The position numbers and the translations under genes are program-made. Below are positions 18,667-39,179 of a stretch of 64,000 nucleotides of DNA, one piece after another. The DNA comes from Cyanidioschyzon merolae (taxonomy: Eukaryota), in assembly GCA_000091205.1 (NCBI GenBank), contig AP006502.2. One strand, 5' to 3'. The notes under the pieces are model-generated. The model had not been told where the DNA came from. It made no database searches and saw only the letters and a list, made by a program, of their open reading frames with translations. Position 1 is the first letter of the stretch; the number at the start of each line of letters is the position of its first letter.

Positions 18667-18695
18667 TCTCACCGAGCTTGAACCGTCGAGAAATT

Positions 18696-19147: not shown

Positions 19148-19837
19148 TACTTTAGCGTTTCAGGAGAATGGATTGACTGAGTATTGAATGATTCCCTGGG
19201 AAGTTAACTCGACTCAAAGATGCTGAACGCTTCCAATGCACAAAACATTTCCGGACTTTGATCGAGGCGCTCACTTCTCGTTGCGGAGAATATTTGAGCG
19301 AATTTTTGCTGGTAGGAGCACACCCGAGCAAGTCTCTCACCTAGCTTTGCACTCCCATTTGACGTCTGCTCAGCTTGCTGGGGATCATCTGGTGAATCAG
19401 GCTCGTTTCACTTGTTTCCCCAGCAGCAATTTCAGTTTGCATTCTGCGCTCGTAATAAGTTTACGCCGCCTTGAATTCAATGGTGGTACTCGTAGAGAAT
19501 CATCTCTGCAATCAGTTCTCGCGCTCGTAGAAGGAACAGAAGAGCATCTTTGTACGCTATAACTCCAAGATCGTCACTGTCTACCTTCGAAACACAAGGC
19601 ATATCTGCCATTTCTTTTTTTGACTCCACTGAAGAAAAATGGCGAATGAACGCTTCCTGCATCCGTACAATCGACTGCATTGCGTTCCCCAGCGCAGGTC
19701 AACTAACCTCTAACGAAGATCGTCTTCAAGAGCCAGTTGGACTTTCAGGTCCTCTCTGGATCTAACCTCCACAGCATGCCACTCAGATGGATACGGTGCT
19801 CCAACCGTCGCTATCGGTTGTAACCCCGTCATTCCAA

Positions 19838-21152
19838 ACGTTCGTGTGCCTCCTGACGCCCATCATGCTTCACTCTAGTATAAAGCCCTCGAAAATTTGC
19901 ACACTATCATCTGGATTCTGTTCAACTCTTTCATTCCGCTCTCTTGATTTTGAGATAAGGCAACCGCGCGATGTATTTCTCTTCATTTATCTTGGACGGT
20001 TGAAAATCAGCATCGTTAGTTGAGTCAAGTTTAAGTTTCACAAAGTGCATGCAGCCTGGTCTTCCGTCGGTCTCCATTCTCCCTGCGTACTCCTTACGAT
20101 TTCCTGCCCTGTAAGGCGAAACGTCGAATCAGCTCTACCCATGATCTTCGGAAAGCTGTTCGAGTGACCCGTGCTCGCTGCCAGAGACCGGCCGTAGCCC
20201 ACTGAGTGGAACGTATAGTACAGAGGAGTCTGCTGTGATTAGTGGGCGTTGAAGTGACGAACGAGGGCCGCTTCGAGCAGACGCTTACGGAGTCGAGTGC
20301 ACCCGCATTGGTGGACGGAGTCTGCTTCGCTCTCGAGGGCTCTCTTGAGGCAAATATAATGGGGCGAGAGATGCAAGCAAGGCAGGTACCCCGTTAACGC
20401 CATGGTATGGATAAGACTTGTGCCGATCCTCTCGAGGGCTCTTTTGAGGCGAATATAATGGGGCGCGGAATGCAAGCAAGGCAGGTATCCCGTTGACACC
20501 ATCGTATGGATAAGACTTGTGCCGATCCTCTCGAGGGCTCTCTCGACGCGAATATAGTGGTGCGCGAATTGCAAGCAAGGCAGGTATCCCGTTGACGCCA
20601 TCGTATGGATAGGACGTGTGGCGATCCGAGTCCGAGATCCACTCGATAGGCGCGGGCGATCTGACGCGAGTCTCGCTCTCGGTGCGATATCGCTTCCGGC
20701 GTCGTTGGCACCTCGATCCCATCTGTCACCATCAGCTTGTCATTTGCCTCCTTCGGCACTCCAAGAAACCGTTCTATCAGTCACCACTTTTTTGGGCCAG
20801 TAAGGTGGCTAAAACGGTTCTAACTTCCAAACGGTGAACCGATTGAAGCACTCGAGATTGTCTCGCGTATCGTTTCATTTTTCAGGTTGATTCGATATTT
20901 TTCTCTTTCGTCATAGATATTCCGATTGCTGATGTGATTTCATGACGTACAAATGTTTTCTCGCAAGCGTGCGTGCAGATCTTGTATACTGCGATCAGGC
21001 CGTGTTTCACGTTCTGTCGCGAACGCTGGTAGAAGAACGAAGGATTTGTACAAAAATCCGTGTGGAATGAGGGCAGCTCGCAATGCGCATCCGGAACTTG
21101 CACGAGCATTTGCATGACGAGCTGTGCCATGGCAAGAGAAGCTATACTAGCC
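19838..21152. repeat. Inverted repeat B, left arm (~1.3 kb), partner 37853-39179
   Basis: ORFs 19787-20023(+), 20239-20601(-), 20285-20722(-), 20394-20759(-), 20616-20837(+) and the 3' part of 20882-21295(-) have near-identical mirror ORFs at 38982-39236(-), 38404-38967(+), 38283-38720(+), 38246-38611(+), 38202-38387(-) and 37874-38122(+). Confidence 0.9.
20331..20640. repeat. Tandem repeat, 99-bp unit x ~3.1 (mirror copy 38365-38674)
   Basis: The tctcgagggc landmark recurs at 20331, 20430 and 20529. Units are ~90% identical. The translated repeat STGYLPCLHSAPHYIRLKRALERIGTSLIHTM(V/A) appears in three frames. Confidence 0.85.
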
Positions 21153-22682
21153 TTCCTCGGGTAAAAGGCTACACAATATCTGATGGGGTCGTGCATGTCA
21201 CATGTAGGAAAATTCTTCCTGTTAAAATATTTTAGTCGGTTGGCTTCGCAGAGATTCCAGACCAAACGCTCCGACCAATTGTCTTTCCTGTGCATTCTTG
21301 TCTTACACTTGGTAGAATCTTTCTCTCCATTTTCTAGCAGTATTTCGCCTTCTCTTGCGCTCAGCTTGCTGGCTTCATTGTCGTCGGTAAACTCAACATC
21401 CGTTTTTCCGCCTGATTCATACGTACCGGATGGACGGTGAGATCAAGGCTCGCTTATTGTGAGTAAATAAGATTGCATCTTTTTTCCCACATATAACTTT
21501 ACATCATCTGTTCCCTAGCGACTTTGCCCATGGAATGGGATGTGCGTTTTGGTTCCCTCGCGCGCTCGCAAAGAGAAGCAATAGTTTGTTTCAGGACAAT
21601 AGAAAGAAGAGAATGATTTGTCTACGAGCGTTTTCACGAGCACGATAGACTCGTTCTCGCAGATGGCGTCTCACTATGTGAGACGAACATGCCCTTTGTG
21701 TGATAGAAATTCGCGTTTCAGTGCGAGATCGATAATATACAGTTAATCGTGCGACAATCTCACAATGTGGCGTAATTTTTTTGCTCATCCGTTTCTTTTC
21801 AATATCGTTCATATTAACGGTACATAAACTTCACATCACTTCTTTTCTTTGGTAGCTTTTCGTAGAGAACGTAGGGAATGGAATGGATCGATGGGGGAAG
21901 ACGCGTGTAGGTACAGTTTCGCAAATTCAGGCATGAGTGCATGACGTTCAGAACAAGGGCTAAACGAAGGGAAGCTCATCAACCTTTGAACCATAGAGCG
22001 ACTGACAGACGTAATGCCATTTTTCGCAGGCTCGTAGTGACAGCATACCCTCTCCCGAAACCTCTCTCCAGTTTGCAGGATGCATTTCATTTGTTGGTTA
22101 CGAGCGAGAAAATCAAAAATAAACAAAAAGAATGCGCTAGTCAATGTGCAACAGAACTCACTGTTCTGCGCACAACCACTCTGAGCGTAACGAACACGAT
22201 TCAATCGTGTAAAGCGTGTTTTCCGGGTGCTCCCACCATCGCACGATCTCATACCAAGTTACTTGAGGAGCGTACTTAATAGATCGTTTCCCCATACCCA
22301 GACACTGTCGTATGTCACAACGGCATACCAGTGCGCTTAGGAGTCAACTGACGACAAGTCAGGGAGTATACGCGAAGGGAGCCACACCGAGTGGCTCAAA
22401 ACCGGCTCCCGCGCCAATGCGCGTAGCTCTTGTACAATGGCTGCATAACCGCTTTTCATAGAAAACCAAAATGAAACCTAAGGCGTGTTGCAGCGACCAG
22501 CAAATCATCAATACTTTTTGGGCCGATTGGCGAGGGCGACTCCATCGACCGTTACACGAATCTCCGAGGCGGCGGATCCGCGACGCCTGCGGCTGCGATT
22601 TTATCTTCTAAATAATTTCGCATCCGCACAGTTCTAGCTCACAGTTGCCGATAGTAGTTTCCGGCTCCTTAGTTTCGTTTAG

Positions 22683-24092
22683 ATGGACCATGACTTTTGG
22701 TGTAGTGATCTGGAGTTTGAATCATATCCGGAGTTGATGAGTGGGAACGGGCGCGAGAGCTCCGTCGACGCAACTGCTGCCGACGGTGACGGTGCTGGCT
22801 GCAGAAACCCGCTCAGAGAGACACTTGACTCGCACGCAAAGCCACTCGGTAGCGATCAATTTTTCGAGCAGGTTCTGCCTAGAGAGGGCGACTTCCTTCA
22901 CGAAGGCCCTTTTCTTAGTGAGGACTCGTTGCAGCGTTTGCTGCTTTCTGTTTCGTCTCCCAGGACCCATGGCGAGTCACAGCTCTCGGAAGAGAAGTCC
23001 ACTCCGGACAAGAGGAGAAGCGGACAGTCAGGTAAAAGCAATAAGGCAGCCCAGGGAGACATACTTGAAGACCCGGAAAGCTTTGTCGGTACTCAAACGG
23101 ACGCCCATGGCGACAATACTGTCAGCCTTCGGGACGTTCTTGCGCTAGCGTTGCCGCGAGTAGACCCGTACTCGCGCCAGCGTCTCCTTGAGCTCCACGG
23201 TTTACTTCGCAAAGGTTCTCTCGATGTGTATGGATTTATCAGCGAGCTGCGTAGAGTTATAGGCTCTAGGATGCTTCGTGAGCTGGCAACCGAGCTGGAA
23301 ACGACTCAGCACGATTTTCTCGAGTGTGAGAGGACTCTTGGGGCGCACAAAACCCAAGAATCATTCATAGAACCGAGTCAACAAAACGCTATGGAGTCTG
23401 TTGAAGAGATTTCTCTCTTGGAACCAGCAACCATGGCGGGAACCGAGGTGTCATCAAGCGAAAGTACGCCACTCTCGACGTCCCAGAGCGCGTCCACCAG
23501 CAAACCGAAGAAGCGCGCTTGGACCCGACTCGAACATTATATATTTTTGAAGGCAATGCAGATCTACGGTAGAGGGAAGTGGAAGTATATCGCCGACGTC
23601 CTGCCCGGTCGAACTCCAAACCAGGTTGCGAGTCACGCCAAGAAGTTTTTCCTGCGACAGAGAAAGAGCTTGAAAGACAAGCGAATGCGCAGCATACATG
23701 ATCTCGTTCTCTCAAGTCCTGAAATGCGCGAAGTGGAACGGGCCCTCGAAACTGGAGCGATTGAAACGCCGGGGTTCAATCTGGCGGCACTGGGTATCGT
23801 TCGGAAGGTACAGTCCGTGTTTCCCCGGCCTGCGCCTTCACATCATGATGGAAGCCTCAGTGGGTGGGAGACTGCCCTTCCTGGGATCAGCAGGAGAGCG
23901 GAGTACACGTCTGCCCCCATGTATCCTTCCGCGGACTATGCGGGGACAAACGCTCACATGGGAGACCCGATGACGCGCAGCTGCGACCTGCGGCTGCGAC
24001 GTTTAGAGTACACGGCCCATTTGCTCCGTCAAACGATCTCCACGATGCGTGCTCAAGCTTGCGGCACCTTAGTCGATCCAAGAGGGTCTTGA
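22683..24092 (+). CDS. MYB-like transcription factor, SHAQKYF class (single MYB/SANT repeat)
   Basis: KKRAWTRLEHYIFLKAMQIYGRGKWKYIADVLPGRTPNQVASHAKKFFLRQRK is a MYB repeat with the SHAQK(Y/F)F signature (here SHAKKFF). The flanking regions are acidic and Ser-rich. Confidence 0.6.
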   Translation: MDHDFWCSDLEFESYPELMSGNGRESSVDATAADGDGAGCRNPLRETLDSHAKPLGSDQFFEQVLPREGDFLHEGPFLSEDSLQRLLLSVSSPRTHGESQLSEEKSTPDKRRSGQSGKSNKAAQGDILEDPESFVGTQTDAHGDNTVSLRDVLALALPRVDPYSRQRLLELHGLLRKGSLDVYGFISELRRVIGSRMLRELATELETTQHDFLECERTLGAHKTQESFIEPSQQNAMESVEEISLLEPATMAGTEVSSSESTPLSTSQSASTSKPKKRAWTRLEHYIFLKAMQIYGRGKWKYIADVLPGRTPNQVASHAKKFFLRQRKSLKDKRMRSIHDLVLSSPEMREVERALETGAIETPGFNLAALGIVRKVQSVFPRPAPSHHDGSLSGWETALPGISRRAEYTSAPMYPSADYAGTNAHMGDPMTRSCDLRLRRLEYTAHLLRQTISTMRAQACGTLVDPRGS

Positions 24093-24668
24093 ATGCTCTA
24101 TCTCCGAGAAGCATCCAAGGCATCTCACGGGTGAAAGGATCAGTGTTAGATTCCGCATTCGTACTTATAAGTGTCCAGACCTGATCCTTTACACGCTTCG
24201 ACGCAGGATTTAGATGTGTCCATGCATATGAACAGTTAGCATGTTGATAAATCGCTATTCTTTAACTTTCTGGGCACGAATGCAGAATCGTTTGATCCAT
24301 ACTTGCCCAGCTCCCACTATCTGAACACATGCTGGTACTCGTGTGAACGGATATCTGACGCTTTCTAGCCTTTTCGGAAGGATCTTGGCTTCGCAGGCGC
24401 TTCGGTGCGCCCCAAGAACTTGTGCTAGATTTCATCATACGGGAGAGCTTTCTGAGTACCATTATACATCTGAAAACGAAAACGTCTTTACTTTCTTTAA
24501 TTGGAGAAGCGCAGTCATATGCATCTCGGTCGGGCCGGGCATGTCATCAGGTGCGATGCGCATTCCACATGCGGGGCGATTCAGGACCCGAGTATGATGC
24601 AACCGCAGTTCAACCATGTACTGCAGCCTATAATTCACTCTCTATTTCTGTATCATTTGGATAATCTA

Positions 24669-26066
24669 CTAGGGAGTGCCACGTTCCATGTCCACTCGTC
24701 GAGTGGTTTTCCAGTAGGGAAGACATTCCGATGGCTTCCAAATGCAGAGCACGACAGTCCAGTATATAAAGAAGATCCGGTGCAATGAGAAGATAAGACC
24801 CAGAAGCGCTAGCCGCAGACTTGCGCAAGCTTGGCACATGAGTCCTAGGCCCCAGACGAGAAGGAACGCTAGATGAAACCAAACCGCACGGTTTCCATTG
24901 AACCAGAATGAGAGAATAAATTGCGGAAGCAAAAATATTGGTGCTAGGAGCACACAAAATTCTACGAGTTCGTCAGGGTCGTTCCACCAGAGGCAGGGCA
25001 ATGACTCCAGATAGTCCGTATAGCGACGGTAGCCGCCGTAGACCCAGCGAGCCCGCTGCTGAAAAAGTGCCTTCCAGCTAGGAGCTAGTTCCTCCATAAC
25101 GTAGGTATCATCGATGTAGTGGATCTTCAGACCCGCAATTTTGAGGCGACAAGTCATATCAACGTCATCACCCGTGGTTTGATCATTGAAGAAAAAGCCT
25201 CTGAGAGCCGACCTGCCATCAGCAACATGCAAGATGACAGCTTCGTCGAAAAACATGCCATTTCCTCGTAATGAAGCACAACCAGCCCGACGAATCTGTC
25301 TCTGAGAGGAGACGAACCAGTCAGCCATATAGTCCGCAACCTGGCAATCCTCAAGCAGGGATCTGCTACCCCATCGAATGGGCTTTTTGAGGACCTGAAG
25401 AACAAGCGCGTCTTCGCTCAAAAATACTGCCGCTAGAGCCGCGAGAAGGCGGGGATCGCACTGTGCATCCGCGTCCAAAAAGCCAATAATATGCCTCTTT
25501 TTCGGTGAAATAATCACATCTTGCTCTCGTTCATAGAAAATGTACTTGAGTGCTGCATTCAAAGCACCAGACTTGCCTCCGCCGATATCGTGCTGCGGAC
25601 GTGCAATCGCTTGGCACACAGGCAGAGGTCGCAATGTGTCCCGTATCCAATGATGAATACGGTCAAAGGAACCATCCGTCGAATGGTCATCAAGTACCAA
25701 AATCCGATAGGAATCCACTGGGTACTTAAGGCCAAAGCAGAGTTTCTGCAGAGTCTTGCAAATCACGCCGCTTTCATTTTTGCAAGGAACTACCAGAGTG
25801 AAGAACGGGAGACTTCCAGTATCAATATCAGCTTCAGGGATTTTTTTAGTTGTAACCTTTTTACGCACTAGGAACGCCAAAAGATATGCGTCTAGTAAGA
25901 TAGCCGCTATATGGTAAACTCGTGAGGCTGGTCTCCAGAGAAACGACACTACGCCCGCCCCGAGGACACACAAGGGCAAAAGCACCGATCTTGAGCGCCG
26001 GTTGCTCGTTTCCGGCAACATCGAGAGGCCCGCGCAAGGTACTCGGACAGAAGTACCGCACAGCAC
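24669..26066 (-). CDS. Family 2 glycosyltransferase, processive type (cellulose/chitin-synthase-like), multi-pass membrane
   Basis: LVVPCKNESGVI, LDDHSTDGS, the DxD motif in FLDADAQCD, and QQRARWVYG (the Q-x-x-R-W motif of processive GT2). Hydrophobic segments at both termini. Confidence 0.7.
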   Translation of the reverse strand: MLCGTSVRVPCAGLSMLPETSNRRSRSVLLPLCVLGAGVVSFLWRPASRVYHIAAILLDAYLLAFLVRKKVTTKKIPEADIDTGSLPFFTLVVPCKNESGVICKTLQKLCFGLKYPVDSYRILVLDDHSTDGSFDRIHHWIRDTLRPLPVCQAIARPQHDIGGGKSGALNAALKYIFYEREQDVIISPKKRHIIGFLDADAQCDPRLLAALAAVFLSEDALVLQVLKKPIRWGSRSLLEDCQVADYMADWFVSSQRQIRRAGCASLRGNGMFFDEAVILHVADGRSALRGFFFNDQTTGDDVDMTCRLKIAGLKIHYIDDTYVMEELAPSWKALFQQRARWVYGGYRRYTDYLESLPCLWWNDPDELVEFCVLLAPIFLLPQFILSFWFNGNRAVWFHLAFLLVWGLGLMCQACASLRLALLGLIFSLHRIFFIYWTVVLCIWKPSECLPYWKTTRRVDMERGTP

Positions 26067-26198
26067 ATATCCATTTGAGAACCTGACAGGACGTTATCAG
26101 AGCGGAACACTCCACACTAGAACGGACTGGAAACGGCACCGACGTCCACCCTTCGTCTCGCGCACGACGGAAGAACAAGAATCCGCGTTGCTCTATCC

Positions 26199-26741
26199 AT
26201 GATCGAGCTCCAGCTTGAACTGTTTCCGGGACATATCGCGGGTTTGCTGCTGGTTGAACTTTCGAAACCTGTTGAAGACTTTGCAAGCATTTTCATACAA
26301 GGAACCTGGGAGTGTGCGCTTCTTGATGCGGGTGTCGTTTTCCACAAGTCACAATTGCTGACTGCGGTTAACGTTGCGTTCCAAAGATTCGAGGCTGGAC
26401 GATTGAAGACTCACTCCCTCCACAATGAGGTGATGCTCGCTCTTTCAGCTAAGCTTAGTATAAGAGATGGACTTGCAGCTGTTCGTTTTTCATGGGAGAA
26501 AACTAGATGTTTAGTTGTTGCTGTGGACCCGCCTGCCTCGTTTCCTCAAGCGGCTGAGTCGACGTCGAACGCTCTGGCTGCAAAGGTCAGACATTTTCCG
26601 GAGGGTGCGAACGAGCTTTTCAACGAACTCCTTGTTCACGTTGATAAGCCTTCGATCCAGAATCTTTATGGAACAGATATCGATCCACACTGGATATGCA
26701 CGAAGATTGCTACCGTTGAGTATGTACGGCAGCTTCGTTGA
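26199..26741 (+). CDS. CGI121: KEOPS/EKC complex subunit Cgi121 (TPRKB)
   Basis: MIELQLELFPGHIAGLLLVEL...DAGVVFHKSQLLTAVNVAFQRFEAGRLKTHSLHNEVMLALSAKLSIRDGLAAVRFS is collinear with TPRKB (LDLFPECRVTLLLF...[56 protein letters not shown]). Confidence 0.7.
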   Translation: MIELQLELFPGHIAGLLLVELSKPVEDFASIFIQGTWECALLDAGVVFHKSQLLTAVNVAFQRFEAGRLKTHSLHNEVMLALSAKLSIRDGLAAVRFSWEKTRCLVVAVDPPASFPQAAESTSNALAAKVRHFPEGANELFNELLVHVDKPSIQNLYGTDIDPHWICTKIATVEYVRQLR

Positions 26742-27360
26742 TCGTGGCGGCATTACGCACACAGGAACGCTAGCGAACGGAATATTCAACGCGAGGGCAA
26801 CCATTTGTGGGCGCTAGGAAAGCGACTTGTACCGTCCAGAGCGCTCTGTTGTTATCATGGAATTTGTTACGAATCCATTCATGGTATCACGGTTAACCGA
26901 CGCTGGGATTGTCATTTTACTTGTCCAGAGCGTTCTGTTGTAATCATTGGGTTTCCTCTGCTGCATTCCCTATCTCATGAGCCGTCATCCAGCGCACAAC
27001 GCACAGTCTATGGGAACGTCACAAGGACTTATAAGCATGTCTTAATTGCGCGTCTGATTTGTCCTGACAAACGCCCTCCTGTTAGTTAACTAGCGCTCAT
27101 GCGGCGTTTCCTGTTTTCGCCAAAGCATCCATGCAGACGACAGCCTGAATCCTTTCGAAACAGTGTGTGATAGCCTCTTTGGACTTGCACGGAGGTCTTT
27201 TCCTCCGTGGTCGATGCAACAGAGCTTGGAAGGCCTGGGAACGTGAAGCCTCCCCTGAAAGCGTAAACGCTCTGCGAAATCGCAGTAAAACGCTTTAAGC
27301 TGGCGTCTGCCAGTTGGCGTGATTAAAAGGGCCCAACGCTTGCCATACAGCAGAAACAAC

Positions 27361-29247
27361 CTAACGCATTTGCGGTGCCTGTAGGATAGATCCATCCAAC
27401 GTGATGCCCAGTAAACGCAAAAATACGGCGATTTCTTCCCTCGAGTTTTCATCCGCAATACGTTGCTCCAAGTCTGAGAAACAGGAAGCGGTCCGTCGCC
27501 CTTGAACCGCATCAATCCCTTCAGGATGTAGCGATCCGTGCATGCTATTCAAATCGAGGCTCGGTCTCGAAAGGACCTGCTTATCCTCTCTGGTCGCCGT
27601 TGGACGTCCCGGAAAGGGTGAATTGCTCCGTTTGACTGTGTTCGTGCAATGATGCATTGAATCTGTGAATCTCGCGGACCGACTCGGAGCTGGGAGGTGC
27701 GCGTTTTTGATCGGAGCCTTTGGGATTTTCAGACGATCAAACCACCGATGCTTGAGCAACTCTTGACAAGACGGACGTTGCCTGTAATCTTGGGCTAAGC
27801 ATAAGGCAAGAAAGTTACGAGCGTTACTACTGAGGCGAATTTCCTGCGGAATTTCAGGCGATCCTTTTTCAAGCAGCGTTACGATCAAGTCAAGGTGTCC
27901 TCTGCAGCCCAAATAGTCATCATAGTTTGGATGCTTCCCTTGCAGGCACTCAAGGAGGCTGATTCCAAGACTATAAATATCCGCTCGGTAATCGTAAGGA
28001 CTCGCGCGAAGCATCTCGGGTGCCATATAAAGGCAAGTCCCGACGAATTTCCCTTCCCGAACTGGTCCGTGCACTCCGAGATCGGAATTATCTTTCTGAG
28101 GATTCTTCTGCACAGATATTGATGAAGATAGACCAAAATCTGCGAGTTTCACTTGCCCAAGACGATTCAACAGAAGGTTGGACGGCTTCACATCCCGATG
28201 CACGCGATGGCAGACGTTGTGGACGAACTGGAGTGCTCGGAGCGTCTGCCACGCAATCGCTCGTACAACTGATTCAGACAGCCGCTTCACGGACGATCGG
28301 CGGTATAAGCCGTCGATGCTTCCGACGTCCATAAGCTCCATAAGAATCATGACCCTGTTTCCGTCCTCGACGATTTCATGGTAATGAACGATGTTTTCGC
28401 AGTCGTGCGCTCGGGCCATTCTCAAGACGGATACTTCGCTTCGTATCTGAGCACGATGCGAGCTTGAATCAATGATCTTTATCGCTATCGGCTCCGATTT
28501 GTCCTTGTACATGGCAAGCTGAACAGATGCGAAGGAACCGCTTCCGATTGTACGGAGAAATTGTAGATGGTTCGCTTTCAGGCCAGAGCCAGTTCCAAAG
28601 CTATTAGATGTCGGACAATCAGATACTTGCATAACACGCGAGACACCCGATTCCATACGAGAGGATTTCATGGAAACGTCTTCCTGTTTGAGAGATTTCC
28701 AATCGGCCGCGGCCTGTCGAGTTTCATAGCTGGTTTCGCCTGCCTCTCCGGCAGATATACTACAAGCCATCACTTGTCGTTCTGCAGTCGAGTACGCGGT
28801 AGGAGCTTCATCTGCCTCTGCACAGCACTCAAAACTCGCACCGTACTCATCGTTTGGTTGGAGTGGGTCTCCAAAGTTGAGATCCGTTTCATTCAGGGTG
28901 AGCTTGCCGAGCCCGCGGCGAACGCTCAGGCTCTTGCTACGTGTTTCTAATAGATTCGATACTGCCACGACAGAATTCGAGGTTGCACTTCCGTAGTTGT
29001 CTTGAGGACGTTTTCGATTGTTCACAGCCGACGCTTGCAAACGCGTCTCGTCTGCAGCTGGTGGTGGACTTCGAGCGACCTTCCCTTTGAGGAGCCCGCT
29101 CAACCAGAGCGGGACGCGGTGGCGCCCTCGCTTCGGGGCAACTCGCCCGAGACGCGAATCAACTTGCGCATACCCTGGTGCGAACCGAGAGTGCAGTGTG
29201 CTGCCTTCTCCAGAGTGCTCCTCTGCGAACCGAAGACATCGCAACAT
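27361..29247 (-). CDS. Dual-specificity MAP kinase kinase (MEK/STE7-like) Ser/Thr protein kinase
   Basis: IGSGSFASVQLAMYK...IAIKII (G-loop and VAIK), HRDVKPSNLLLNRLGQVKLADFGLS (HRD and DFG), GTCLYMAPE. The long N-terminal extension is Ser-rich. Confidence 0.75.
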   Translation of the reverse strand: MLRCLRFAEEHSGEGSTLHSRFAPGYAQVDSRLGRVAPKRGRHRVPLWLSGLLKGKVARSPPPAADETRLQASAVNNRKRPQDNYGSATSNSVVAVSNLLETRSKSLSVRRGLGKLTLNETDLNFGDPLQPNDEYGASFECCAEADEAPTAYSTAERQVMACSISAGEAGETSYETRQAAADWKSLKQEDVSMKSSRMESGVSRVMQVSDCPTSNSFGTGSGLKANHLQFLRTIGSGSFASVQLAMYKDKSEPIAIKIIDSSSHRAQIRSEVSVLRMARAHDCENIVHYHEIVEDGNRVMILMELMDVGSIDGLYRRSSVKRLSESVVRAIAWQTLRALQFVHNVCHRVHRDVKPSNLLLNRLGQVKLADFGLSSSISVQKNPQKDNSDLGVHGPVREGKFVGTCLYMAPEMLRASPYDYRADIYSLGISLLECLQGKHPNYDDYLGCRGHLDLIVTLLEKGSPEIPQEIRLSSNARNFLALCLAQDYRQRPSCQELLKHRWFDRLKIPKAPIKNAHLPAPSRSARFTDSMHHCTNTVKRSNSPFPGRPTATREDKQVLSRPSLDLNSMHGSLHPEGIDAVQGRRTASCFSDLEQRIADENSREEIAVFLRLLGITLDGSILQAPQMR

Positions 29248-29554
29248 GCAGCAAAGCTAGTCCTTCTTTCCTAGTCGCATAGAAAACTCTGCGGCATTGA
29301 TCCTAATTTGCTAGTGCGCGTTGTACCCTCCAATACCGTGGCGGCTGCAGGCAGATGTGACTTCACACCCATATTAGACTAAACTGCAACAGGCTTTCAA
29401 ACAAAGCTGCGCAAACTAAAGTTTGATTTTGTTCCCGCTCTAATAAACACTAGCCTTTGTGGCTTGTTCTGCGATTGGGTTTGCTCCCTCTAACTTATTT
29501 CGGGCTTTGAATGCACTGGTCTATCCTTTTCCTCAAAATCCATCGTCTGCAGTT

Positions 29555-29700
29555 CGGGGATATTGATGGCAGCGTTGAGGTCCCGATTTCGCTGCTTCCC
29601 GCAATTGTCGACTCAGTCGATGCACCGGGCGGTAGATAAGTTCAGAGCTTCGCTCTCCATTTTCACCTTCTTTATGTACAGCGTGGAGCGCATATCGCAG
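29555..29700 (+). repeat. Decayed copy of the RDVDGNVTATI-type TnpB/Fanzor-like 3' end
   Basis: DNA GGGATATTGATGGCAGCGTTGAGGTCCCGATTTCGCTGCTTCC compared with GGGATGTTGATGGCAACGTTACAGCCACGATTTCGCCGCTTCC at 17505-17547. The later ...tt(c/t)atgtacag block is also shared. It translates as F-G-D-I-D-G-S-V-E-V-P-I-S-L-L-P. Confidence 0.35.
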
Positions 29701-31327
29701 AGTGACATATGGCTGCAGTCAGGTATTCAAGCATTTCCGACATACCTCATTCTTCTGCGCAAGGTACCCTACGGCGCGTGCAGGCATGGTTCATCGCTCC
29801 ATCATGCCATTGACGGGCATAGAAGATGCCCTCGGTGCTCTCTTCCGTTTCCGCGTATGGTGCCGTGCGCTACGAGCATGGGGGATCCTCCCTGTGAGAA
29901 CTCTGTTCTCTGGATACGCAAGCGCGCACTGTTCCATAAGATAGAGGATTCATGGAACACAATATCGTACATGATGGAACGCGTACTCGAAGGAATATCC
30001 GGGCTGGATATCACTCTGCGAAATTTCGATACGACTAAGCTACCCTCGTGCAAAATGTCACGTACTGCCCACTGCAAGCGGTCGCCGCGTGGACTGACGT
30101 CCAAGTCCGAGACCTTTTTCCATGTAAACAAAAGAGACGAGAAAAGCAACGAGCAGATATTGAGTGCCATTTCTTCGATACCGAAGAAGAGAGGAGGACG
30201 TATTTTCGAATCGAATGGTTTCTTTGATGTGGCAAGTTTAGTGGACTTTTGGAATGAGCTTGCGAAAAAAGTCGTCTAGGGACAGCGTCGAGTGTTTTAC
30301 GTCTTCATTCTAATGGTGCGAGTTGCTGCGCCCCGGGTCGGCTCGAAGCACAGAGGTCCAAAACGTGAGGAATATGTGAATTGAGCATGATAAGTGTGAG
30401 AAAAGGAGAGAGGCGGAGGTTTGTACCCATGAACTAGATGATGATGACGGCTATTCTACGAACCTGAATTCGACGGTATCGCGAAGGATCTTAATTACGG
30501 TGACATCCCGGTTTCCAGCAGCAAGGAGCGGATAGAGCTACTCCGAAACGACGACCGGGAATCCAAATACTCCGAATCAATCCATAAGCCCCTACTGCGG
30601 GACCTGGAGTTCCGAAGCCGCACATCCATAAATGGTCGAAAACATCGCAAGTCAGGAACAGAGCGGGCAGTTCAACTTTTCATTTTAATCTGACAGGGGC
30701 TAGGCCAGTCTCTGGATGAATCACAAATAGCAAGGAGACATCCTAGCAAGAGGAGAGCATCATTTGCAGAAAGTTCTGCGAAGATATTAAGGCGCGCATG
30801 CAGAAGTCCCCAGATATCCGGAACGTACACGAGCACCAGTTCGTCCACGAAGCGTTCATGACGAATCCTGGTCAGTTTGGAATATGCAAAGAAATATTCT
30901 AGCACACGCCAATCACTCAATGCGTTTTGCACCCAATTCAGCCTCTGGAACTCACGCCCTCGTTGGACACCCCACAGACATTCTGTCTCCATGCGACATC
31001 CGCAGATGCGTCAGCAACGACTCAGCGAGCGTCCGCAGTAGGCTCAATGCCACCTGCATCGCTGGATCTTTCAAGTTGCCGTTGTTTAGGACCAATGAGC
31101 CGGCCTCCAAGGCTGCGTGAATCGCGAGCACAGGGGAACAGTCCCTATGAGTTTCCGCGCAAACCGCAGTCGGTGTACGAGCGTACTTGAAGATGATTAC
31201 CATTCATGAGAAGACCCTCATGCAACGCTCCTCTGTGGCGACAGTAGACATGACAGCTCCTCGCATGACTGCATCAGAACCGGGTATATTCTTTGGCAGC
31301 GCCTTACCCTAGTATGTACCCAGGTCT

Positions 31328-32191
31328 TCAAATCCGTGCATTCGGACCAAGTGTTTTCTTGGGCAGCGCCTTACCCTCGTACGCATCCAGGTAAGAGCTA
31401 TCCGATAATTTTCGCTCCACATCGTAGCTCATTCTTCTGAGAACTTGAGGCGTCATTTGCAAAGGCTCAAACTGGAAAATTTCCGGGGGCGGTCTCGTGG
31501 AGGGTGGTCGCCTGCGCCGATTCTCGAGCCCTGTACCAGAACGCGTCGGCAACTCGCCCTCCGCTGAAGCAGACTTGTCGGGCGGTATAGCTGCGGACTG
31601 CTCCACGGCAGCTACCCAGTTCCAGTCAAGACTTTTCAATTCTTGCAGAGAAAACTCTAGTCGGCCCTGCTTCCCAACAATTTGGACGTTCGGAAGTGGC
31701 TCCGCCTCTGGCCTTTGGTCCCGCCTCAGGACCCGCAGCACAACGTCAGGCCTTCGATGAGCAGCTATTGTCCTTGCCTTTATTTTTTCTCTCAGAGGCT
31801 CTGGGAGCGTCTTCCCCCGATTCCAAGGCACACGCTCTCTGCTGTTTTTAGGTGGCGGCGGCTTCTTCTCTGCCTTCCGCTTCTGCGACGTGCGCTTCAC
31901 CGGAGCCTTCGCAGAGTCCTTTGCACGCGAAGCGTCTTGGATTTTACCGCTCCCCGGTGCGCGCTTCTTGCGGGTACGGCGCTCTTGTTTTGGTTCGCAG
32001 TCTGATGAACAGCTTACAAGCGGCTTGCGGAAAAAAAGGTGCCCGCGGAACGTCCTCGTAAGTATCGCCCACATGCGCAATGAAAAGATTTCATATACTA
32101 GCTGCGGGTAAATTCGTCTGAGGTTGTGCACGCGCATTCGGCGCCGTACGCCGATATATACTTCTGACTGCGCTTCAAAGGCGTGCGACAT
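31328..32191 (-). CDS. Hypothetical Lys/Arg-rich protein
   Basis: 287-aa ORF with long basic tracts (KKRAPGSGK...KRKAEKKPPPPK). No recognisable domain. Divergent from NAC-alpha. Confidence 0.3.
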   Translation of the reverse strand: MSHAFEAQSEVYIGVRRRMRVHNLRRIYPQLVYEIFSLRMWAILTRTFRGHLFFRKPLVSCSSDCEPKQERRTRKKRAPGSGKIQDASRAKDSAKAPVKRTSQKRKAEKKPPPPKNSRERVPWNRGKTLPEPLREKIKARTIAAHRRPDVVLRVLRRDQRPEAEPLPNVQIVGKQGRLEFSLQELKSLDWNWVAAVEQSAAIPPDKSASAEGELPTRSGTGLENRRRRPPSTRPPPEIFQFEPLQMTPQVLRRMSYDVERKLSDSSYLDAYEGKALPKKTLGPNARI

Positions 32192-32906
32192 GACTGAGGA
32201 ACTGCCTCGACAAACAGAACCTCTTACTGAAGAAGAGACGGATCAGGAAAGTGCGTCCGAATTAAAACAAGAAGATATCGCCGAGGCAGCGAGAGAAAGT
32301 GGCATTGATCCGAAAGAGCTTGCACAGCAAGCGGCGCTCCTTCAGGCGCATGAGCACGCCGTCGGCGCGGCTGGCGCAGGGGCTGGCCTCCCCGCTCGCC
32401 AGTCTCGAGCTGAGAAGAAGACGAGAAAAGCCCTCTCAAAACTTGGACTGAAAAAGGTACCGGGTGTAACGCGGATTGCAGTGAAAAAAGAAGGGACTTT
32501 ACTTTTTGTTGTTTCGCAACCCGATGTGTACAAGAGCTCGGCGTCTGACACGTACGTTTTCTTCGGAGAAGCCAAAATTGGTGAGAGTATTGGTGATGCC
32601 GGTGCACAGGCCGAGGCAAGGCGCTTCCTAGACTACAGCGCTGACTCTGATCAGTTTGGCCTCGAGGGCAAACTGCGCGACTATCTTGGCGGCGAGAGAG
32701 CGGGAGCCGACGGGGCTCCCGGCACACGCTCAGGTCCCAGCGGCGACGTGTCAGAACAGGAAGAGGAAGTTGATGAGACAGGGCTCGACCCTAAGGACAT
32801 TGAGCTCGTTGTCCAGCAGGCGGATGTTTCCCGAGCACGTGCAGCACGAGCGTTACGCAATAACAATGGTGATATTGTGAATGCTATACTTGAGTTGACG
32901 GTATAA
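32190..32906 (+). CDS. NACA: Nascent polypeptide-associated complex subunit alpha (NAC-alpha) with C-terminal UBA domain
   Basis: NAC domain KKVPGVTRIAVKKEGTLLFVVSQPDVYKSSASDTYVFFGEAKIGE. C-terminal UBA-like LVVQQADVSRARAARALRNNNGDIVNAILELT. Acidic N-terminus. Start taken at the second Met (32190). Confidence 0.8.
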   Translation: MTEELPRQTEPLTEEETDQESASELKQEDIAEAARESGIDPKELAQQAALLQAHEHAVGAAGAGAGLPARQSRAEKKTRKALSKLGLKKVPGVTRIAVKKEGTLLFVVSQPDVYKSSASDTYVFFGEAKIGESIGDAGAQAEARRFLDYSADSDQFGLEGKLRDYLGGERAGADGAPGTRSGPSGDVSEQEEEVDETGLDPKDIELVVQQADVSRARAARALRNNNGDIVNAILELTV

Positions 32907-33111
32907 AGAAAGAATTTGATGACGCCTTACGGGGTATGCTTTGAGATCGGGGCTGTTCTGCTGGACCACACGATCCTGGAGCCGATGCGTTTCATGCTCA
33001 CCGAGAAATCTGAGAGCGCATCACGGGAAGGAACCGAAGGCGCTCACGTCACTCAATGCGTGACGTTCTGACTTTGCATCACCGGATCCAGACACTTTCT
33101 TCAAGCCTTTT

Positions 33112-34371
33112 TTAACCCAATCCGTCGTGATTGCGAGCTCCGTAGAGTTCACGCAACAGATAATATGCAAAGTTGCTCGAGAAGCTCCCAATATCCGTGA
33201 CAAAAATTGAGACTTGCGAACTCGGCACGATCGCATAGCGCGGATTACTTACTCCGACTCTGGATTGGAACGGGCTAATGCTTTCATATGGCAACAGAGT
33301 GCTGGGCACAAAAGATTTTTCGATAGCGGAAATATCATGAGGGAACCGCTCAGAAATCCTGTGCAACTCCGTCAGAACTAGGACAGGAACAGCGTGCGCA
33401 CGCGCTGCATCCGCAGCAAGGCGACACGTTGGGCGCGTGATCACGGAACCCTCCGCAAGGACTACTTCGGCGCGGATGATCAGCTTGTGCACCCGAGCCA
33501 TAATTGCATATACTGCAGCGTCCGTAATCAACGTCGTATCAATACCGCGCCCAGCAAGCTCGCTTGCTAGCCTGTGACCACTGCACTCTGGCGCAGCTTC
33601 AGATACGAAGACCTTGAAACGGCGTTTTTTCCCAGCTTCTAATAGGAAATGCATAATTAAAGGCGAATACCCGCAGGTCAAAACCACCTCTTCCGAATGT
33701 ATATGCTCGCTGCTTTGCTGTGCTATCTGACTGTCAGCGCTCTCGAGCTCGTTCAGAAGTTCGACAACCGTTTCTTCTTGTCGAAATTCTTCCACGGTAC
33801 AGCTTTCTAGAAGCCGTCGACTGGAGTCGTTCCTCTCCTGGAAGATATTTGAGCTGTCGCTGGGACCCCTGCTGCCGAGTACCGAGACAGCCACGAAGGT
33901 CTCGAGTTCAGCGCCTGCAGTGGAGCTCGCGAATCCTTGAACACGTCGTTGTCTGAGAAGTAGTAGCCGCTTCAAAACATTTTCCAGTACGTACTGGCAA
34001 AGAATGTTCGAGAATAGTTTCTGATCATTCAAGAGTTTTGTGAGATCACGCAAAAAAGCCTCTAGGCTCCTCGTTGCACAGTACTGGAGCAGTACACGGA
34101 GCGCGCTTGCTAGTTGGTTACCGAACGGAACGGTATTCGTCTTTGACTTCTTTCCAGATTCGTTCTTCGGTTGCGTTTCTTCAGCAACAGCACGACGAGC
34201 GCTTGCACGGCAGTTGGAAGTGGGATACGTTACGGGCTTCAAAAAAACCGACGTGAAAAACTCCGCTCCGTAAAGACTCTCATACGCTTCATCTAAACTC
34301 TTTAGCAGCTTCAACGCAATTTCCTCGAAGCGTTGATCTTCGGAATCAGCCTCTGCTGAACTTGAAGCCAT
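33112..34371 (-). CDS. Translation initiation factor eIF2B subunit (beta/delta family; IF-2B fold)
   Basis: C-terminal Rossmann-like block EVVLTCGYSPLIMHFLLEAGKKRRFKVFVSEAAPECSGHRLASELAGRGIDTTLITDAAVYAIMARVHKLIIRAEVVLAEGSVI...AHAVPVLVLTELHRIS is typical of eIF2B alpha/beta/delta and MtnA. The 419-aa length fits beta/delta. Confidence 0.6.
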   Translation of the reverse strand: MASSSAEADSEDQRFEEIALKLLKSLDEAYESLYGAEFFTSVFLKPVTYPTSNCRASARRAVAEETQPKNESGKKSKTNTVPFGNQLASALRVLLQYCATRSLEAFLRDLTKLLNDQKLFSNILCQYVLENVLKRLLLLRQRRVQGFASSTAGAELETFVAVSVLGSRGPSDSSNIFQERNDSSRRLLESCTVEEFRQEETVVELLNELESADSQIAQQSSEHIHSEEVVLTCGYSPLIMHFLLEAGKKRRFKVFVSEAAPECSGHRLASELAGRGIDTTLITDAAVYAIMARVHKLIIRAEVVLAEGSVITRPTCRLAADAARAHAVPVLVLTELHRISERFPHDISAIEKSFVPSTLLPYESISPFQSRVGVSNPRYAIVPSSQVSIFVTDIGSFSSNFAYYLLRELYGARNHDGLG

Positions 34372-34555
34372 CGCTCAGTGAAACCCAGTATCTCAACTAT
34401 GCCAGCCGCGTCTTGTTCTCTGCTGGAATGGGACGGATCCGAGCTTGCGCGGCATCAATAGCAACGTGACAGTATGTCCCTGGACCACGGAGGATGGAAT
34501 CGCACCGTCATGCGCCTCATCATTCTTTATAGCCTTTAAGCTCAGTTGTGTTCGA

Positions 34556-35307
34556 CCCTTGGATGAGTATAATGAAATGGTATTTCGCTGGTTATAGAAG
34601 ATGCGTTCGAAGAGTGCTAATTTTCAAAACTAAAAAATCGAGGGGAAAGGTAAGGACACGGAAGTCGGGGATCCTGGAGTCCCAGTATCGCCAGGTGCCG
34701 GAAAAGAAACAAAAAATCTTCTTCTCGTCGACAATGGATCCAAGAAGAGCAAGTGACAATGAAGAAGAGGAGGGTAGATAGGCGAGAAAAGGTGCTTGCG
34801 CGGTGGGGCCACGGCGAGATTGTAGTGGCGCCGATGGGTCGTCTTCTAAGAATCAATGCAAAGGTGACTTCAATCAGCTGTAGAGCATTCAAGGAGTTTG
34901 TGAACCGCGACTTCAACACCACCATCAATGTCAGATGGAGCGTGATGCGGAAGTCTCGGTTCATGGACTCCATGATTGGTTGCCTCTGGTTGAAATCATC
35001 AATTCAAGGATTACTAGAACTCGTCTCATCGGCGCCCCTACAATCTCGCCGTGGCCCCACCGCGCAAGCACCTTTTCTCGCCTATCTACCCTCCTCTTCT
35101 TCATTGTCACTTGCTCTTCTTGGATCCATTGTCGACGAGAAGAAGATTTTTTGTTTCTTTTCCGGCACCTGGCGATACTGGGACTCCAGGATCCCCGACT
35201 TCCGTGTCCTTACCTTTCCCCTCGATTTTTTAGTTTTGAAAATTAGCACTCTTCGAACGCATCTTCTATAACCAGCGAAATACCATTTCATTATACTCAT
35301 CCAAGGG
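34556..35307. repeat. Foldback palindrome built from a TnpB/Fanzor-like 3' fragment
   Basis: ORF 34548-34781(+) = 35082-35318(-), 34630-34812(-) = 35051-35233(+), and the C-terminus of 34617-34973(-) = the C-terminus of 34935-35246(+). The arms (34556-34842 and 35021-35307) encode G-I-L-E-S-Q...F-S-S-T-M-D-P-R-R-A-S-D-N-E-E-E-E-G, homologous to the 48858-48990 copy. The 178-bp spacer (34843-35020) encodes A-F-K-E-F-V-N-R-D-F-N-T-T-I-N-V-R. Confidence 0.6.
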
Positions 35308-35488
35308 TGGAACACCACTGAGGTGAGAGACTATAATCTAACTCTCAGTTACCGTGATTGCTCTCATGCCACAAATGGATAGACCTGGAGAAGCCCGTAC
35401 TACAGTTGGACGGCGCACGAATCTACCAACTCAGCACCCGCGCTGTTCCGATTTGTGCTGACGAATTGGGCGGGAAAGATGAAACAGT

Positions 35489-36094
35489 TTGAGAAAGGAC
35501 GTTCTAGCTCAAATGCCGCAGTGGAGCGCAGAAAACGCTGCGGTTGTTAATAGGGATTCTCTAAATAAGGATGAAGAGTGCAATACGTCTAACGCAAACT
35601 GCTCAGAGCGAGTGAAGAGAACAAAGAAAGCCATTGTGAAACCTCGTCTACCAGTCCGGTGTGCGCTGCTTCAAAGCCCTCCGCGAAAGCGATACAAAAA
35701 TGTTTCAACGCTTTCTTCGATTCAAGTGGCTGGCGCTCTAGGAGCTCCGAGAGTTCCACAAGAAACTCCACTAAAAACGCAACATAGATGTTACAGACTG
35801 AAGCTCGACGCTAAGGATAAAGGCACTCGCCGGCAGAGTCACGGCGATGGCGACGGCTTTAGCCCCGAAAGCTCAGATATCAGGCGCAATGTCCTGCACA
35901 AACCACTCCAACTTTCGAGTGGTCTTGAATGTGACGGCATCAATAGGCAGCGGAGTTCCCCGCCGGACCCTGTGTCCAACACAACCGAGCTCTTGGAACG
36001 GCCAAGTGATGGAGACGTGGTTTGTACTGTTCCTCGTGAGGTTCTGATTCTTTGCAATGAAAAGGACGAATTTTTCCAAGCAATATTCAGATGA
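35489..36094 (+). CDS. Hypothetical protein
   Basis: 201-aa ORF in a gene-sized gap. No recognisable motif. Confidence 0.2.
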   Translation: MRKDVLAQMPQWSAENAAVVNRDSLNKDEECNTSNANCSERVKRTKKAIVKPRLPVRCALLQSPPRKRYKNVSTLSSIQVAGALGAPRVPQETPLKTQHRCYRLKLDAKDKGTRRQSHGDGDGFSPESSDIRRNVLHKPLQLSSGLECDGINRQRSSPPDPVSNTTELLERPSDGDVVCTVPREVLILCNEKDEFFQAIFR

Positions 36095-37852
36095 CTTTGT
36101 TTTTCCCGTCGCCGCTATCTGGAAAGAGTCACTCAGGGCAACCTCTTGCTGGCGGCGGCCCGATTTTTGCGTCACATGATGGGCAACTAGCGAGCCGGTC
36201 AAGAGTTGAATCACAGCAACGATTGCCTGTTATTTAATGAGTGGTACATATAGCCTCAACTGCTTGGTATAACCTTTCCATTGTTTCGGAGAATCAGGTT
36301 CGTTCAACGCAGGCTCGGTTCCGGATAATTTCACAGATCAGAATCGAGCAGATAGCATCATGAATTTTCTTCCACAAAATGACTGGCATTAGGATCATTA
36401 TAACCGACGCAAAACATAAACTCCGTTAATCCTATCTCAAAATCGTAGCAGTGAGTTCCGGAAACCTTGGCTTGAGTACCATTGTTCTGAATGTGCTTTT
36501 TCTCATGGATATGAAACAAACTAAGACGTCCTGTAAATTAGAGAAATGTAGCGGCAAGCCTCTATTCTCTGACTTGTCGCTCACGAGAAAAAATACCTTT
36601 CATGTGTCATTCAGTCATTACTACGTTCAGCAGCTGGATGAATCGCCTTTCTTGCAGCGCTTGTCCTGAACTTCGTGCATCCAAAACAGAATGTCTGAAT
36701 GTTTCTCTATGCGACCGTTTCTCCATGTATCTATTCCACCACAAGCGTTCTCGAGGTGATATCTTCACAAACGTTGCAGGATGTCAGCCTTCGGTAGCAC
36801 TGATACAAGCGATGATGAAGAGGCATGCGTGGGCAAAAATAGAAGAGCCCTGCTATTGGAAACACTCGCAAGTTGTACAAAACATTATTGATTTCGAACT
36901 GAAACGCAAACGGCTTTTGCAGAAAAGTCTGGTGCTCGCCTCACTGGATTAGACATCATCCGGGAAAAACGGTAAACCTATATAAGGAAAATGATAGAGG
37001 GGCGAACAACTGTTCGAAAAGAAGGCAAAAGCGAGCATTAAGAGAAAATCAGCCCCAGCAGAAATGCAATCGTGTTATTGCCCTCTAATCAGCAATCGAA
37101 CTGGATCGTTGGATACCTCACCCAGCGTGGTAACACTCTTCATGATCTGCTCTTCGCACCCTCTTCTGTCATTCTCCGAGACAACTTCGCCGTACATCTT
37201 TGAAAAGCGAGAGGAGAGAACGATACTCAGATTGGCACTGAGCTACTCTTCGTGCCAGGATATACCCCTGGTTCAATGCAGGAGAGGCGTATATTTAAGT
37301 GCCAGACGCGGTCTTAACGGACATGGATCCATGGAAGAATCATTAGCATCCATGTCTTTGTTCGTTGAGAAATCGTTCTCTGCCATCGCAAGCCTTAAAC
37401 TGATATGTTCCTTTTCCTACCGTGTGCGGGAGGGAGCGGAGTGGCGCTTCGGATTGTAACACGTGCTCGCTACGAAGGAAGTGACCAAAATGTACTCGAG
37501 AAATAAAAAGTACATATCCAGGAAAAGTGACCTTCGCACTGATCATCCCCGAAATGCGTCCGATCCGCGAGGAATAGACCTGGTATGGAGTATAGCAATA
37601 GCATGGAAATCGCCATACCCAGCAAGGGGAAAATACGAGGAAAGAGAAGGGGATGCATCAACCAGACAAAGTAGAGAATTGTACCCCGAAACAAGCACAA
37701 ATAACGACAGGACAAAAACTATAGAAGTGGAAAGATCAGTCCAAAATCGCTGCAAAGGCATAAACACTAATATACATGAACAGGAAGAGAATTCCAGAAA
37801 CTGAAATTCGGAGCACCAGTAAGGATCATATAACTTCGTTTTCGAGGAGGGC

Positions 37853-39179
37853 TCTCATAGCTTTTCTCTTACCGTGGCACAGCTCGTCATGCAAATGCTC
37901 GTGCAAGTTCCGGATGCGCATTGCGAGCTGCCCTCATTCCACACGGATTTTTGGACAAATCCTTCGTTCTTCTACCAGCGTTCGCGACAGAACGTGAAAC
38001 ACGGCCTGATCGCAGTATACAAGATCTGCACGCACGCTTGCGAGAAAACATTTGTACGTCATGAAATCACATCAGCAATCGGAATATCCATGACGAAAGA
38101 GAAAAATATCGAATCAACCTGAAAAATGAAACGATACGCGAGACAATCTCGAGTGCTTCAATCGGTTCACCGTTTGGAAGTTAGAACCGTTTTAACCTAC
38201 CTTACTGGCCTAAAAAAGTGGTGACTGATAGAACGGTTTCTTGGAGTGCCGAAGGAGGCAAATGACAAGCTGATGGTGACAGATGGGATCGAGGTGCCAA
38301 CGACGCCGGAAGCGATATCGCACCGAGAGCGAGACTCGCGTCAGATCGCCCGCGCCTATCGAGTGGATCTCGGACTCGGATCGCCACACGTCCTATCCAT
38401 ACGATGGCGTCAACGGGATACCTGCCTTGCTTGCGATTCGCGCACCACTATATTCGCGTCGAGAGAGCCCTCGAGAGGATCGGCACAAGTCTTATCCATA
38501 CGATGGTGTCAACGGGATACCTGCCTTGCTTGCATTCCGCGCCCCATTATATTCGCCTCAAAAGAGCCCTCGAGAGGATCGGCACAAGTCTTATCCATAC
38601 CATGGCGTTAACGGGGTACCTGCCTTGCTTGCATCTCTCGCCCCATTATATTTGCCTCAAGGGAGCCCTCGAGAGCGAAGCAGACTCCGTCCACCAATGC
38701 GGGTGCACTCGACTCCGTAAGCGTCTGTTCGAAGCGGCCCTCATTCGTCACTTCAACGCCCACTTATCACTGCAGACTCCTCTGTACTATACGTTCCACT
38801 CAGTGGGCTACGGCCGGTCTCTGGCAGCGAGCACGGGTCACTCGAACAGCTTTCCGAAGATCATGGGTAGAGCTGATTCGACGTTTCGCCTTACAGGGCA
38901 GGAAATCGTAAGGAGTACGCAGGGAGAATGGAGACCGACGGAAGACCAGGCTGCATGCACTTTGTGAAACTTAAACTTGACTCAACTAACGATGCTGATT
39001 TTCAACCGTCCAAGATAAATGAAGAGAAACACATCGCGCGGTTGCCTTATCTCAAAATCAAGAGAGCGGAATGAAAGAGTTGAACAGAATCCAGATGATA
39101 GTGTGCAAATTTTCGAGGGCTTTATACTAGAGTGAAGCATGATGGGCGTCAGGAGGCACACGAACGTTTGGAATGACGG
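37853..39179. repeat. Inverted repeat B, right arm
   Basis: Reverse complement of 19838-21152. Includes the 99-bp tandem array at 38365-38674. Confidence 0.9.

Follow-up and report, generated by a model that had tools for sequence, protein, structure and literature searches.

We analysed a 64,000-nucleotide stretch of Cyanidioschyzon merolae 10D nuclear DNA (contig AP006502.2), referred to here as the window, in which a pair of inverted repeats, termed IR-B, encloses a 16.7-kb block of about nine genes. The orientation of this block in the window is opposite to that found in three outgroup lineages and in the environmental C. merolae-like contigs that cross an IR-B arm. Homologous recombination between the two arms probably inverted the block in the 10D lineage, and the window shows the derived orientation. 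No published description of the IR-B repeat or of its inversion was found; Nozaki 2007 (PMC1955436) makes no mention of inverted repeats, and Cho 2023 (PMC9812998) reports inversions between Cyanidioschyzon and Cyanidiococcus in general terms only.

The IR-B arms are near-identical and sharply bounded

The elements on which the analysis depends are as follows.

18666–19825: unique left flank, between the neighbouring repeat IR-A and IR-B
19826–21145: left arm of IR-B, apparently homogenised core, 1320 bp, 51% GC, 98.8% identical to the reverse complement of 37857–39179
20330–20627: minisatellite in the left arm, 3.0 copies of a 99-bp unit (Tandem Repeats Finder), within 19975–20794, the putative exchange interval
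21146–37856: invertible interval, 16,711 bp, about nine genes, in the derived orientation
37857–39179: right arm of IR-B, apparently homogenised core, 1323 bp, globally aligned with the left core
38378–38675: minisatellite in the right arm, 3.0 copies of a 99-bp unit (Tandem Repeats Finder)
41446–43563, plus strand: topoisomerase VI subunit B (TopoVIb), the marker gene of the right flank

Global alignment of the two cores gave 98.8% identity, with 1307 matched positions, 13 mismatches and 3 gap columns, so that 13 substitutions and 2 indels separate the 10D arms. Chance cannot produce a match of this length, 1.3 kb, at 99% identity. The core edges are sharp on both sides, and the cores are separated by 16,711 bp. 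A repeat search of the window returned IR-B as the arm pairs 19790–20814/38191–39215 (97%) and 20788–21140/37864–38216 (96%). The first-pass annotation, made from the sequence without database searches, had placed near-identical arms at 19838–21152 and 37853–39179 with a three-copy 99-bp array in each; the cores agree with these arms to within ~12 bp, and both arrays were recovered by Tandem Repeats Finder. Its estimate of ~700 bp between the right arm of IR-A and the left arm of IR-B has to be corrected to 1,160 bp, with IR-A ending at 18665. Its description of nested inverted duplications does not hold either: IR-A and IR-B are neighbours, and only a small palindrome is nested, inside IR-B.

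Because one environmental contig, L021, carries two 99-bp units (L021 3339–3537, equivalent to window 20405–20503) and both 10D arms and the other contigs carry three, the minisatellite is variable in copy number.

Environmental contigs cross the arms in the opposite orientation

Three contigs from environmental strains that are 98–99.6% identical to 10D span an arm. The first, L001, is a 25.3-kb ENA contig found through the CGI-121 protein, in which the reverse of window positions 42805–37843 is joined directly to forward 19823–34759, giving the order TopoVIb flank, arm, MYB end. The other two came from a scan of JGI metagenome contigs: L019 runs from 37689–37856 through the arm to 19825–18972, and L021 from 35039–37856 through the arm to 19825–18548. 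Both thereby link the right end of the interval (the 37856 side) to the unique left flank. In all three contigs the arm is present and the interval is oriented opposite to the window, and the arm is seen at both ancestral junction types, in different samples (L001 versus L019 and L021). In a site-by-site table, the bases of L019 and L021 were of the left type outside the arm and of the right type within it, with the reverse pattern in L001; the switch of flank type falls exactly across the core, at 19825/19826 and 21145/21146. Cyanidioschyzon described as '10D-like' dominates Lemonade Creek in Yellowstone (PMC11662350).

All other contigs end within the arms, those entering from the right flank stopping 54–290 bp inside the right arm. 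Exact-protein look-ups with a 79-aa right-flank, a 108-aa left-flank and a 104-aa right-interior open reading frame (ORF) yielded no further spanning contigs, and those retrieved stop within the arms. A 16,993-bp interval contig (JGI sample 3300050356) terminates at both ends in identical 127-bp inverted arm stubs. Two further interval contigs from two JGI samples (L005 and L006) start 445 bp inside the interval, at the equivalent of window position 21590 and not in the arm, which hints at a strain difference or at an additional repeat at 21146–21590.

Outgroup gene order polarises the two arrangements

In two assemblies of Cyanidiococcus yangmingshanensis (L022 and L023), the gene order is kinase (+), Cgi121 (−), GT2 (+), MYB (−), a 3.2-kb spacer, TopoVIb (+), hydrolase (−) and leucyl-tRNA synthetase (+). 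The order in Cyanidium caldarium (L042) is the same, with a spacing of 840 bp between MYB and TopoVIb. In an uncultured third lineage (L028–L030), a single contig reads Sacchrp_dh (−), RHD3 (+), then radical SAM (+), then eIF2B (+) and NAC (−), then kinase (+), Cgi121 (−), GT2 (+) and MYB (−). MYB is the divergent neighbour of TopoVIb in L001, in C. yangmingshanensis, in the uncultured lineage and in C. caldarium, and the two genes lie 17 kb apart in the window. The position of eIF2B on the radical-SAM side is seen in the uncultured lineage, from which comes the only outgroup contig extending that far.

Compared with the outgroups, the window has like flanks and a reversed MYB-to-eIF2B block, and the inversion breakpoints coincide with the IR-B arms. 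Because the outgroups share the gene order of L001, L019 and L021, the arrangement in these contigs is ancestral and that of the 10D window is derived. The earlier suggestion that the arm pair is a substrate for inversion and could make the locus structurally polymorphic is therefore supported by three arm-spanning contigs and three outgroup lineages, all opposite to the window, in a between-strain comparison whose 10D side consists of the reference alone.

In the uncultured lineage, the second of the outgroups, three independent assemblies break ~1.4 kb upstream of TopoVIb and ~400 bp past MYB (starts of L024–L026, ends of L028–L030). That spacer holds something that is hard to assemble, and no inverted repeat was detected there.

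The arms belong to an older, lineage-specific duplication

Homology between the two copies continues beyond the 99% core at ~62–64% identity, for ~680 bp outward and ~1 kb inward.

19141–19825: outer extension of the left copy, ~62% (61.9%) identical to the reverse complement of 39180–39858
21146–22163: inner extension of the left copy; 21146–21256 is ~64% identical to its partner, and 21654–22163 is 59% identical to 36968–36449 (E = 5e-22)
36449–37856: inner extension of the right copy, diverged partner of 21146–22163
39180–39858: outer extension of the right copy, diverged partner of 19141–19825

Sensitive blastn joined 19141–21256 with 39858–37745 in a single alignment. The first two 300-bp blocks of the outer extension gave local alignment scores of 38 and 51 against shuffle means of ~10 (z ~21 for the first), and the inner extension exceeded its shuffled controls with z ~13.6. 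These values suggest that the segmental duplication behind IR-B, in inverted orientation, is old and at least 3 kb long, and that its central 1.32 kb has been homogenised. Because the flanks beyond the core are only ~62% identical, the duplication appears from sequence divergence to be far older than the 0.4–2% divergence among strains. The near-identity of the middle 1.32 kb would then reflect gene conversion, or the recent replacement of one copy's sequence by that of the other.

Neither the repeat nor a homologue of the arms was detected in the outgroup spacers by blastn, sensitive blastn or six-frame tblastn, except for a 70-bp match upstream of MYB, which places the origin of the duplication in the C. 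merolae lineage. In keeping with this, a repeat expansion has been reported for C. merolae, where repeats make up 12.7% of the genome compared with 0.59% in Cyanidiococcus (Cho et al. 2023, PMC9812998).

The age of the duplication bears on whether the arms are the cause of the inversion or a by-product of it. Ranz and colleagues are said to have put forward, in 2007, a staggered-break model for the inverted duplications at Drosophila inversion breakpoints. IR-B resembles that case in that duplicates of non-coding breakpoint sequence, in inverted orientation, bound the inversion, are missing in the outgroups and are present in the derived 10D arrangement. Unlike in the Drosophila case, the arm also occurs in ancestral-orientation genomes, at both of their junction types (L001; L019 and L021), so that a by-product origin would require a second flip back by arm recombination, and the ~62% identical flanks make the duplication much older than the flip. 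Both points make the arms the likelier cause of the inversion, and we regard a staggered-break origin as exceedingly improbable.

The arms show no sign of coding and have no further copies in the data searched

No evidence of coding was found in the IR-B arms, which contain only short orphan ORFs. None of ten arm and flank ORFs had a Pfam match. A 145-aa arm ORF had zero homologues in a search of 5.8 billion proteins, and a 187-aa arm ORF had one match among 1.84 billion representatives, an 87-aa fragment that is 92% identical and presumably derives from the same locus. Coding arms were rejected on these grounds, and the mirrored ORFs at 21836–22252 (−) and 36602–36952 (+) were rejected as a protein pair for want of protein similarity. 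The window gave no Rfam match and no tRNA.

The searches for further arm copies covered the window and the JGI metagenome contigs, a narrower set than the complete 10D genome. No third copy was found within the window, and the metagenome scan gave five loci, every one mapping to the two known arms; scans of prokaryotic genomes and viral contigs returned nothing. The first-pass annotation would have been contradicted by an arm that recurred as a high-copy dispersed repeat with no difference in orientation, and what was found is an arm that, in the data searched, occurs at these two positions, and an interval whose orientation differs. The same results bear on the idea that the arms are two oppositely inserted copies of a transposable element or of a dispersed repeat family. 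The high repeat content of the C. merolae genome relative to Cyanidiococcus (PMC9812998) and the occurrence of other repeat families in the window speak for such an origin. The arms, however, hold no transposase or reverse-transcriptase ORF by Pfam and, beyond the fragment mentioned, no protein homologues, and their homology fades gradually into the diverged ~62% flanks without defined termini. From the window and metagenome data, we therefore consider insertion of mobile copies very unlikely.

Proposed mechanism and position of the exchange

The observations are consistent with the following history. The two copies would go back to an old duplication in inverted orientation, at least 3 kb long and restricted to the C. 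merolae lineage. The central 1.32 kb would have been kept, or recently reset, at ~99% identity by exchange between them. Non-allelic homologous recombination with a crossover between the cores would then have inverted the intervening 16.7 kb with its nine or so genes, in which case the 10D reference would represent the flipped state, and the wild arm-crossing contigs, like the outgroups, the ancestral one. C. merolae integrates DNA efficiently by homologous recombination with arms of ~1 kb.

Two sites within the arms point, weakly, to where the exchange may have taken place. At 19975, an A accompanies the left flank (10D left arm, L021, L031) and a G the right flank (10D right arm, L001, L007). 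At 20794, a G accompanies the MYB side (10D left arm, L001) and an A the other inner side (10D right arm, L018–L021). Both sites could fit one reciprocal exchange between them, minisatellite included.

Because the exchange sits inside identical sequence, no gene is broken by the flip, and the flanking genes each retain at least ~3 kb of unchanged upstream DNA. For both of these reasons, the flip is probably neutral, and no phenotype is expected.

Points against the inversion and competing explanations

Several observations weigh against an arm-mediated inversion in 10D. The reference sequence is the sole source of the 10D orientation, and no independent contig in the reference orientation was found. 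The spanning contigs all come from metagenomes assembled from short reads. Such assemblies can route a contig arbitrarily through a collapsed repeat, and if paths are random, three non-reference joins out of three have a chance probability of 1/8. The exchange point depends on two informative sites, one of which has an exception: L019 continues into the left flank and yet has a G at 19975. The two 10D arms differ mostly at positions private to 10D, which say nothing about the exchange, and mapping the crossover from these differences was abandoned. Finally, L018, which comprises the right inner side and the arm, carries right-flank-type markers, as in 10D. These markers could mean that the derived orientation also occurs in the wild, or equally reflect gene conversion or assembly smoothing.

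The main rival explanation is that no inversion occurred and that the interval was reversed between the near-identical repeats during Sanger-era assembly or finishing, leaving the 10D reference mis-oriented. Inverted repeats are a classic source of such errors, the short-read assemblies all break in these arms, and every other source (three outgroup lineages and three environmental spanning contigs) gives the opposite orientation. The arms nevertheless differ by 13 substitutions and 2 indels, a length of 1.3 kb can be bridged by plasmid mate pairs and bacterial artificial chromosomes, and the genome was finished chromosome by chromosome and described as '100% complete' (PMC1955436); none of this is a direct test. 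On balance we hold a mis-oriented reference to be unlikely.

Alternatively, the inversion could be real and fixed in C. merolae-like strains, the three spanning contigs being chimeras through the collapsed repeat and the polymorphism spurious. De Bruijn and merged assemblies may take an arbitrary route across a two-copy repeat, most assemblies collapse the arms, and in L018 the right-flank-type outer markers stand beside the right inner side as they do in 10D. Such chimeras would, however, have had to arise in three independent assemblies from three samples, each with the same non-reference join and each reproducing the outgroup arrangement. L020 provides a fourth, marker-based case, and the same assemblies halt at other repeats, L001 ending in a 351-bp palindrome. 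Fixation with chimeric contigs is accordingly quite improbable.

Recombination between the arms in the 10D lineage thus remains the preferred explanation. A more far-reaching version of it is that the interval flips recurrently, with both orientations coexisting in natural C. merolae populations and at a low level in cultures, the core being kept identical by gene conversion and the variable 99-bp minisatellite serving as the preferred exchange site. A hint in this direction comes from two related contigs, L018 (sample Ga0207433) and L021 (sample JGI24721J44947): from the right inner side, L018 passes into an arm with right-flank-type markers, as in 10D, whereas L021 continues to the left flank. 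We regard recurrent flipping as doubtful, if conceivable.

Gene content of the interval and its flanks

The window gene map consists of long, almost intron-free ORFs. Within the interval, the order in the window is an orphan ORF, MYB (+), GT2 (−), Cgi121 (+), a STE-group kinase (−), orphan ORFs, NAC-alpha (+), eIF2B (−), the small palindrome and further orphan ORFs. Pfam assigned the following genes.

22683–24092, plus strand: Myb; exact match to the MYB-related protein BAM83240
24669–26066, minus strand: GT2
26199–26741, plus strand: CGI-121; exact match to the hypothetical protein BAM83242/XP_005539278
27361–29247, minus strand: protein kinase, STE-group
32124–32906, plus strand: NAC/UBA (NAC-alpha)
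33112–34371, minus strand: eIF-2B

These assignments bear out the MYB, GT2, Cgi121, NAC-alpha and eIF2B genes that had been read from the sequence. For the gene labelled MEK, the identification as a STE-group kinase stands, and the MEK label is plausible rather than established: the best solved relatives include both STE20-type kinases and MAP2K7/5/4/6. Pfam detected no recombinase domain in the ORFs scanned, which were the ten longest of the interval and seven orphan ORFs from the arms and flanks, smaller ORFs falling outside the scan.

The internal palindrome noted at the outset is present at 34527–34877/34986–35336, with 351-bp arms that are 94% identical and a 108-bp spacer; L001, L018 and L021 terminate within it. 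Positions 34950–35281 resemble 49105–48775 at 68.6%.

According to the gene map, the left flank carries a RING protein, a saccharopine-dehydrogenase-like protein, an RHD3 GTPase and a radical SAM protein, and the right flank topoisomerase VI-B, an alpha/beta hydrolase and a leucyl-tRNA synthetase. The last of these is read as two ORFs, 45202–46881 and 47032–48405, ~150 bp apart, and the identical split is found in environmental contigs and in the second outgroup. The Cyanidiococcus leucyl-tRNA synthetase is annotated as one product of 1002 aa. The split is probably one of the group's rare introns.

Other repeats in the window

The neighbouring repeat IR-A has arms at 12790–14132 and 17323–18665 (1343 bp, 100% identical) that enclose a radical-SAM gene at 16064–17110 (+), the orientation of which agrees with outgroup contig L028. 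IR-A is a second potential inversion substrate, presently in the ancestral orientation. IR-A likewise breaks short-read contigs that enter it from the left flank of IR-B. DNA that is 65–75% similar to the IR-A arm was found at 62390–63086, 30044–30693, 49158–50218 and 53797–54310, which, judged from similarity within the window, indicates a diverged dispersed repeat family; a 162-aa IR-A arm ORF has no protein-level relatives within the window.

A direct repeat at 49360–50216/53492–54348 (857 bp, 99.5% identical) lies around an Rxt3-like gene (51387–53387, −) and is a possible substrate for deletion or duplication. L001 seems to end at its left copy.

Comparison with known systems and significance

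Inversion between inverted repeats has well-characterised parallels. At Xq28, inverted repeats flank the ~48 kb of the FLNA–EMD inversion, which is polymorphic among humans and has recurred across mammals; recombination between inverted segmental duplications also causes the F8 intron-22 inversion. IR-B shares with these mammalian inversions two high-identity inverted copies around intact genes, an orientation that differs between close relatives, breakpoints inside the copies and, here as a likely explanation of the core, likeness of the copies maintained by gene conversion. It differs in that its arms are ~10 times shorter (1.3 kb) and its host is a haploid alga with a repeat-poor 16.5-Mb genome. 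Recurrence and within-population polymorphism belong to the FLNA–EMD case, whereas the contrast at IR-B is one between strains.

The flip-flop isomers of plastid genomes are a second parallel, in that homologous recombination between inverted copies reverses a segment and the copies undergo concerted evolution. Unlike these, IR-B is nuclear and has arms of only a small fraction of the length of the plastid inverted repeat, and no evidence points to both isomers at appreciable frequency in one cell line. As in the Hin, Gin and Cin systems and in FLP/FRT of the yeast 2-micron plasmid, a segment between inverted repeats changes orientation; unlike those site-specific switches, IR-B offers 1.3 kb of general homology in place of short crossover sites and has no apparent regulatory output.

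A repeat-bounded inversion is a well-known kind of rearrangement, and either outcome at this locus would be useful rather than surprising, with no regulatory consequence expected. As a model organism, C. merolae 10D is prized for its '100% complete' and very simple genome. If the reference proves to be mis-oriented, a 16.7-kb orientation error would have been located that affects synteny studies, for example counts of inversions between Cyanidioschyzon and Cyanidiococcus. If the interval does flip recurrently, it would provide a small natural reporter of recombination and a local suppressor of crossovers in a eukaryote with an extremely simple genome. If the inversion is real, the locus would offer a dated and mechanistically clear repeat-mediated rearrangement, in which the ancestral state, the derived state and the substrate are all identified, together with a polymerase chain reaction marker that separates 10D from wild Yellowstone-type strains.

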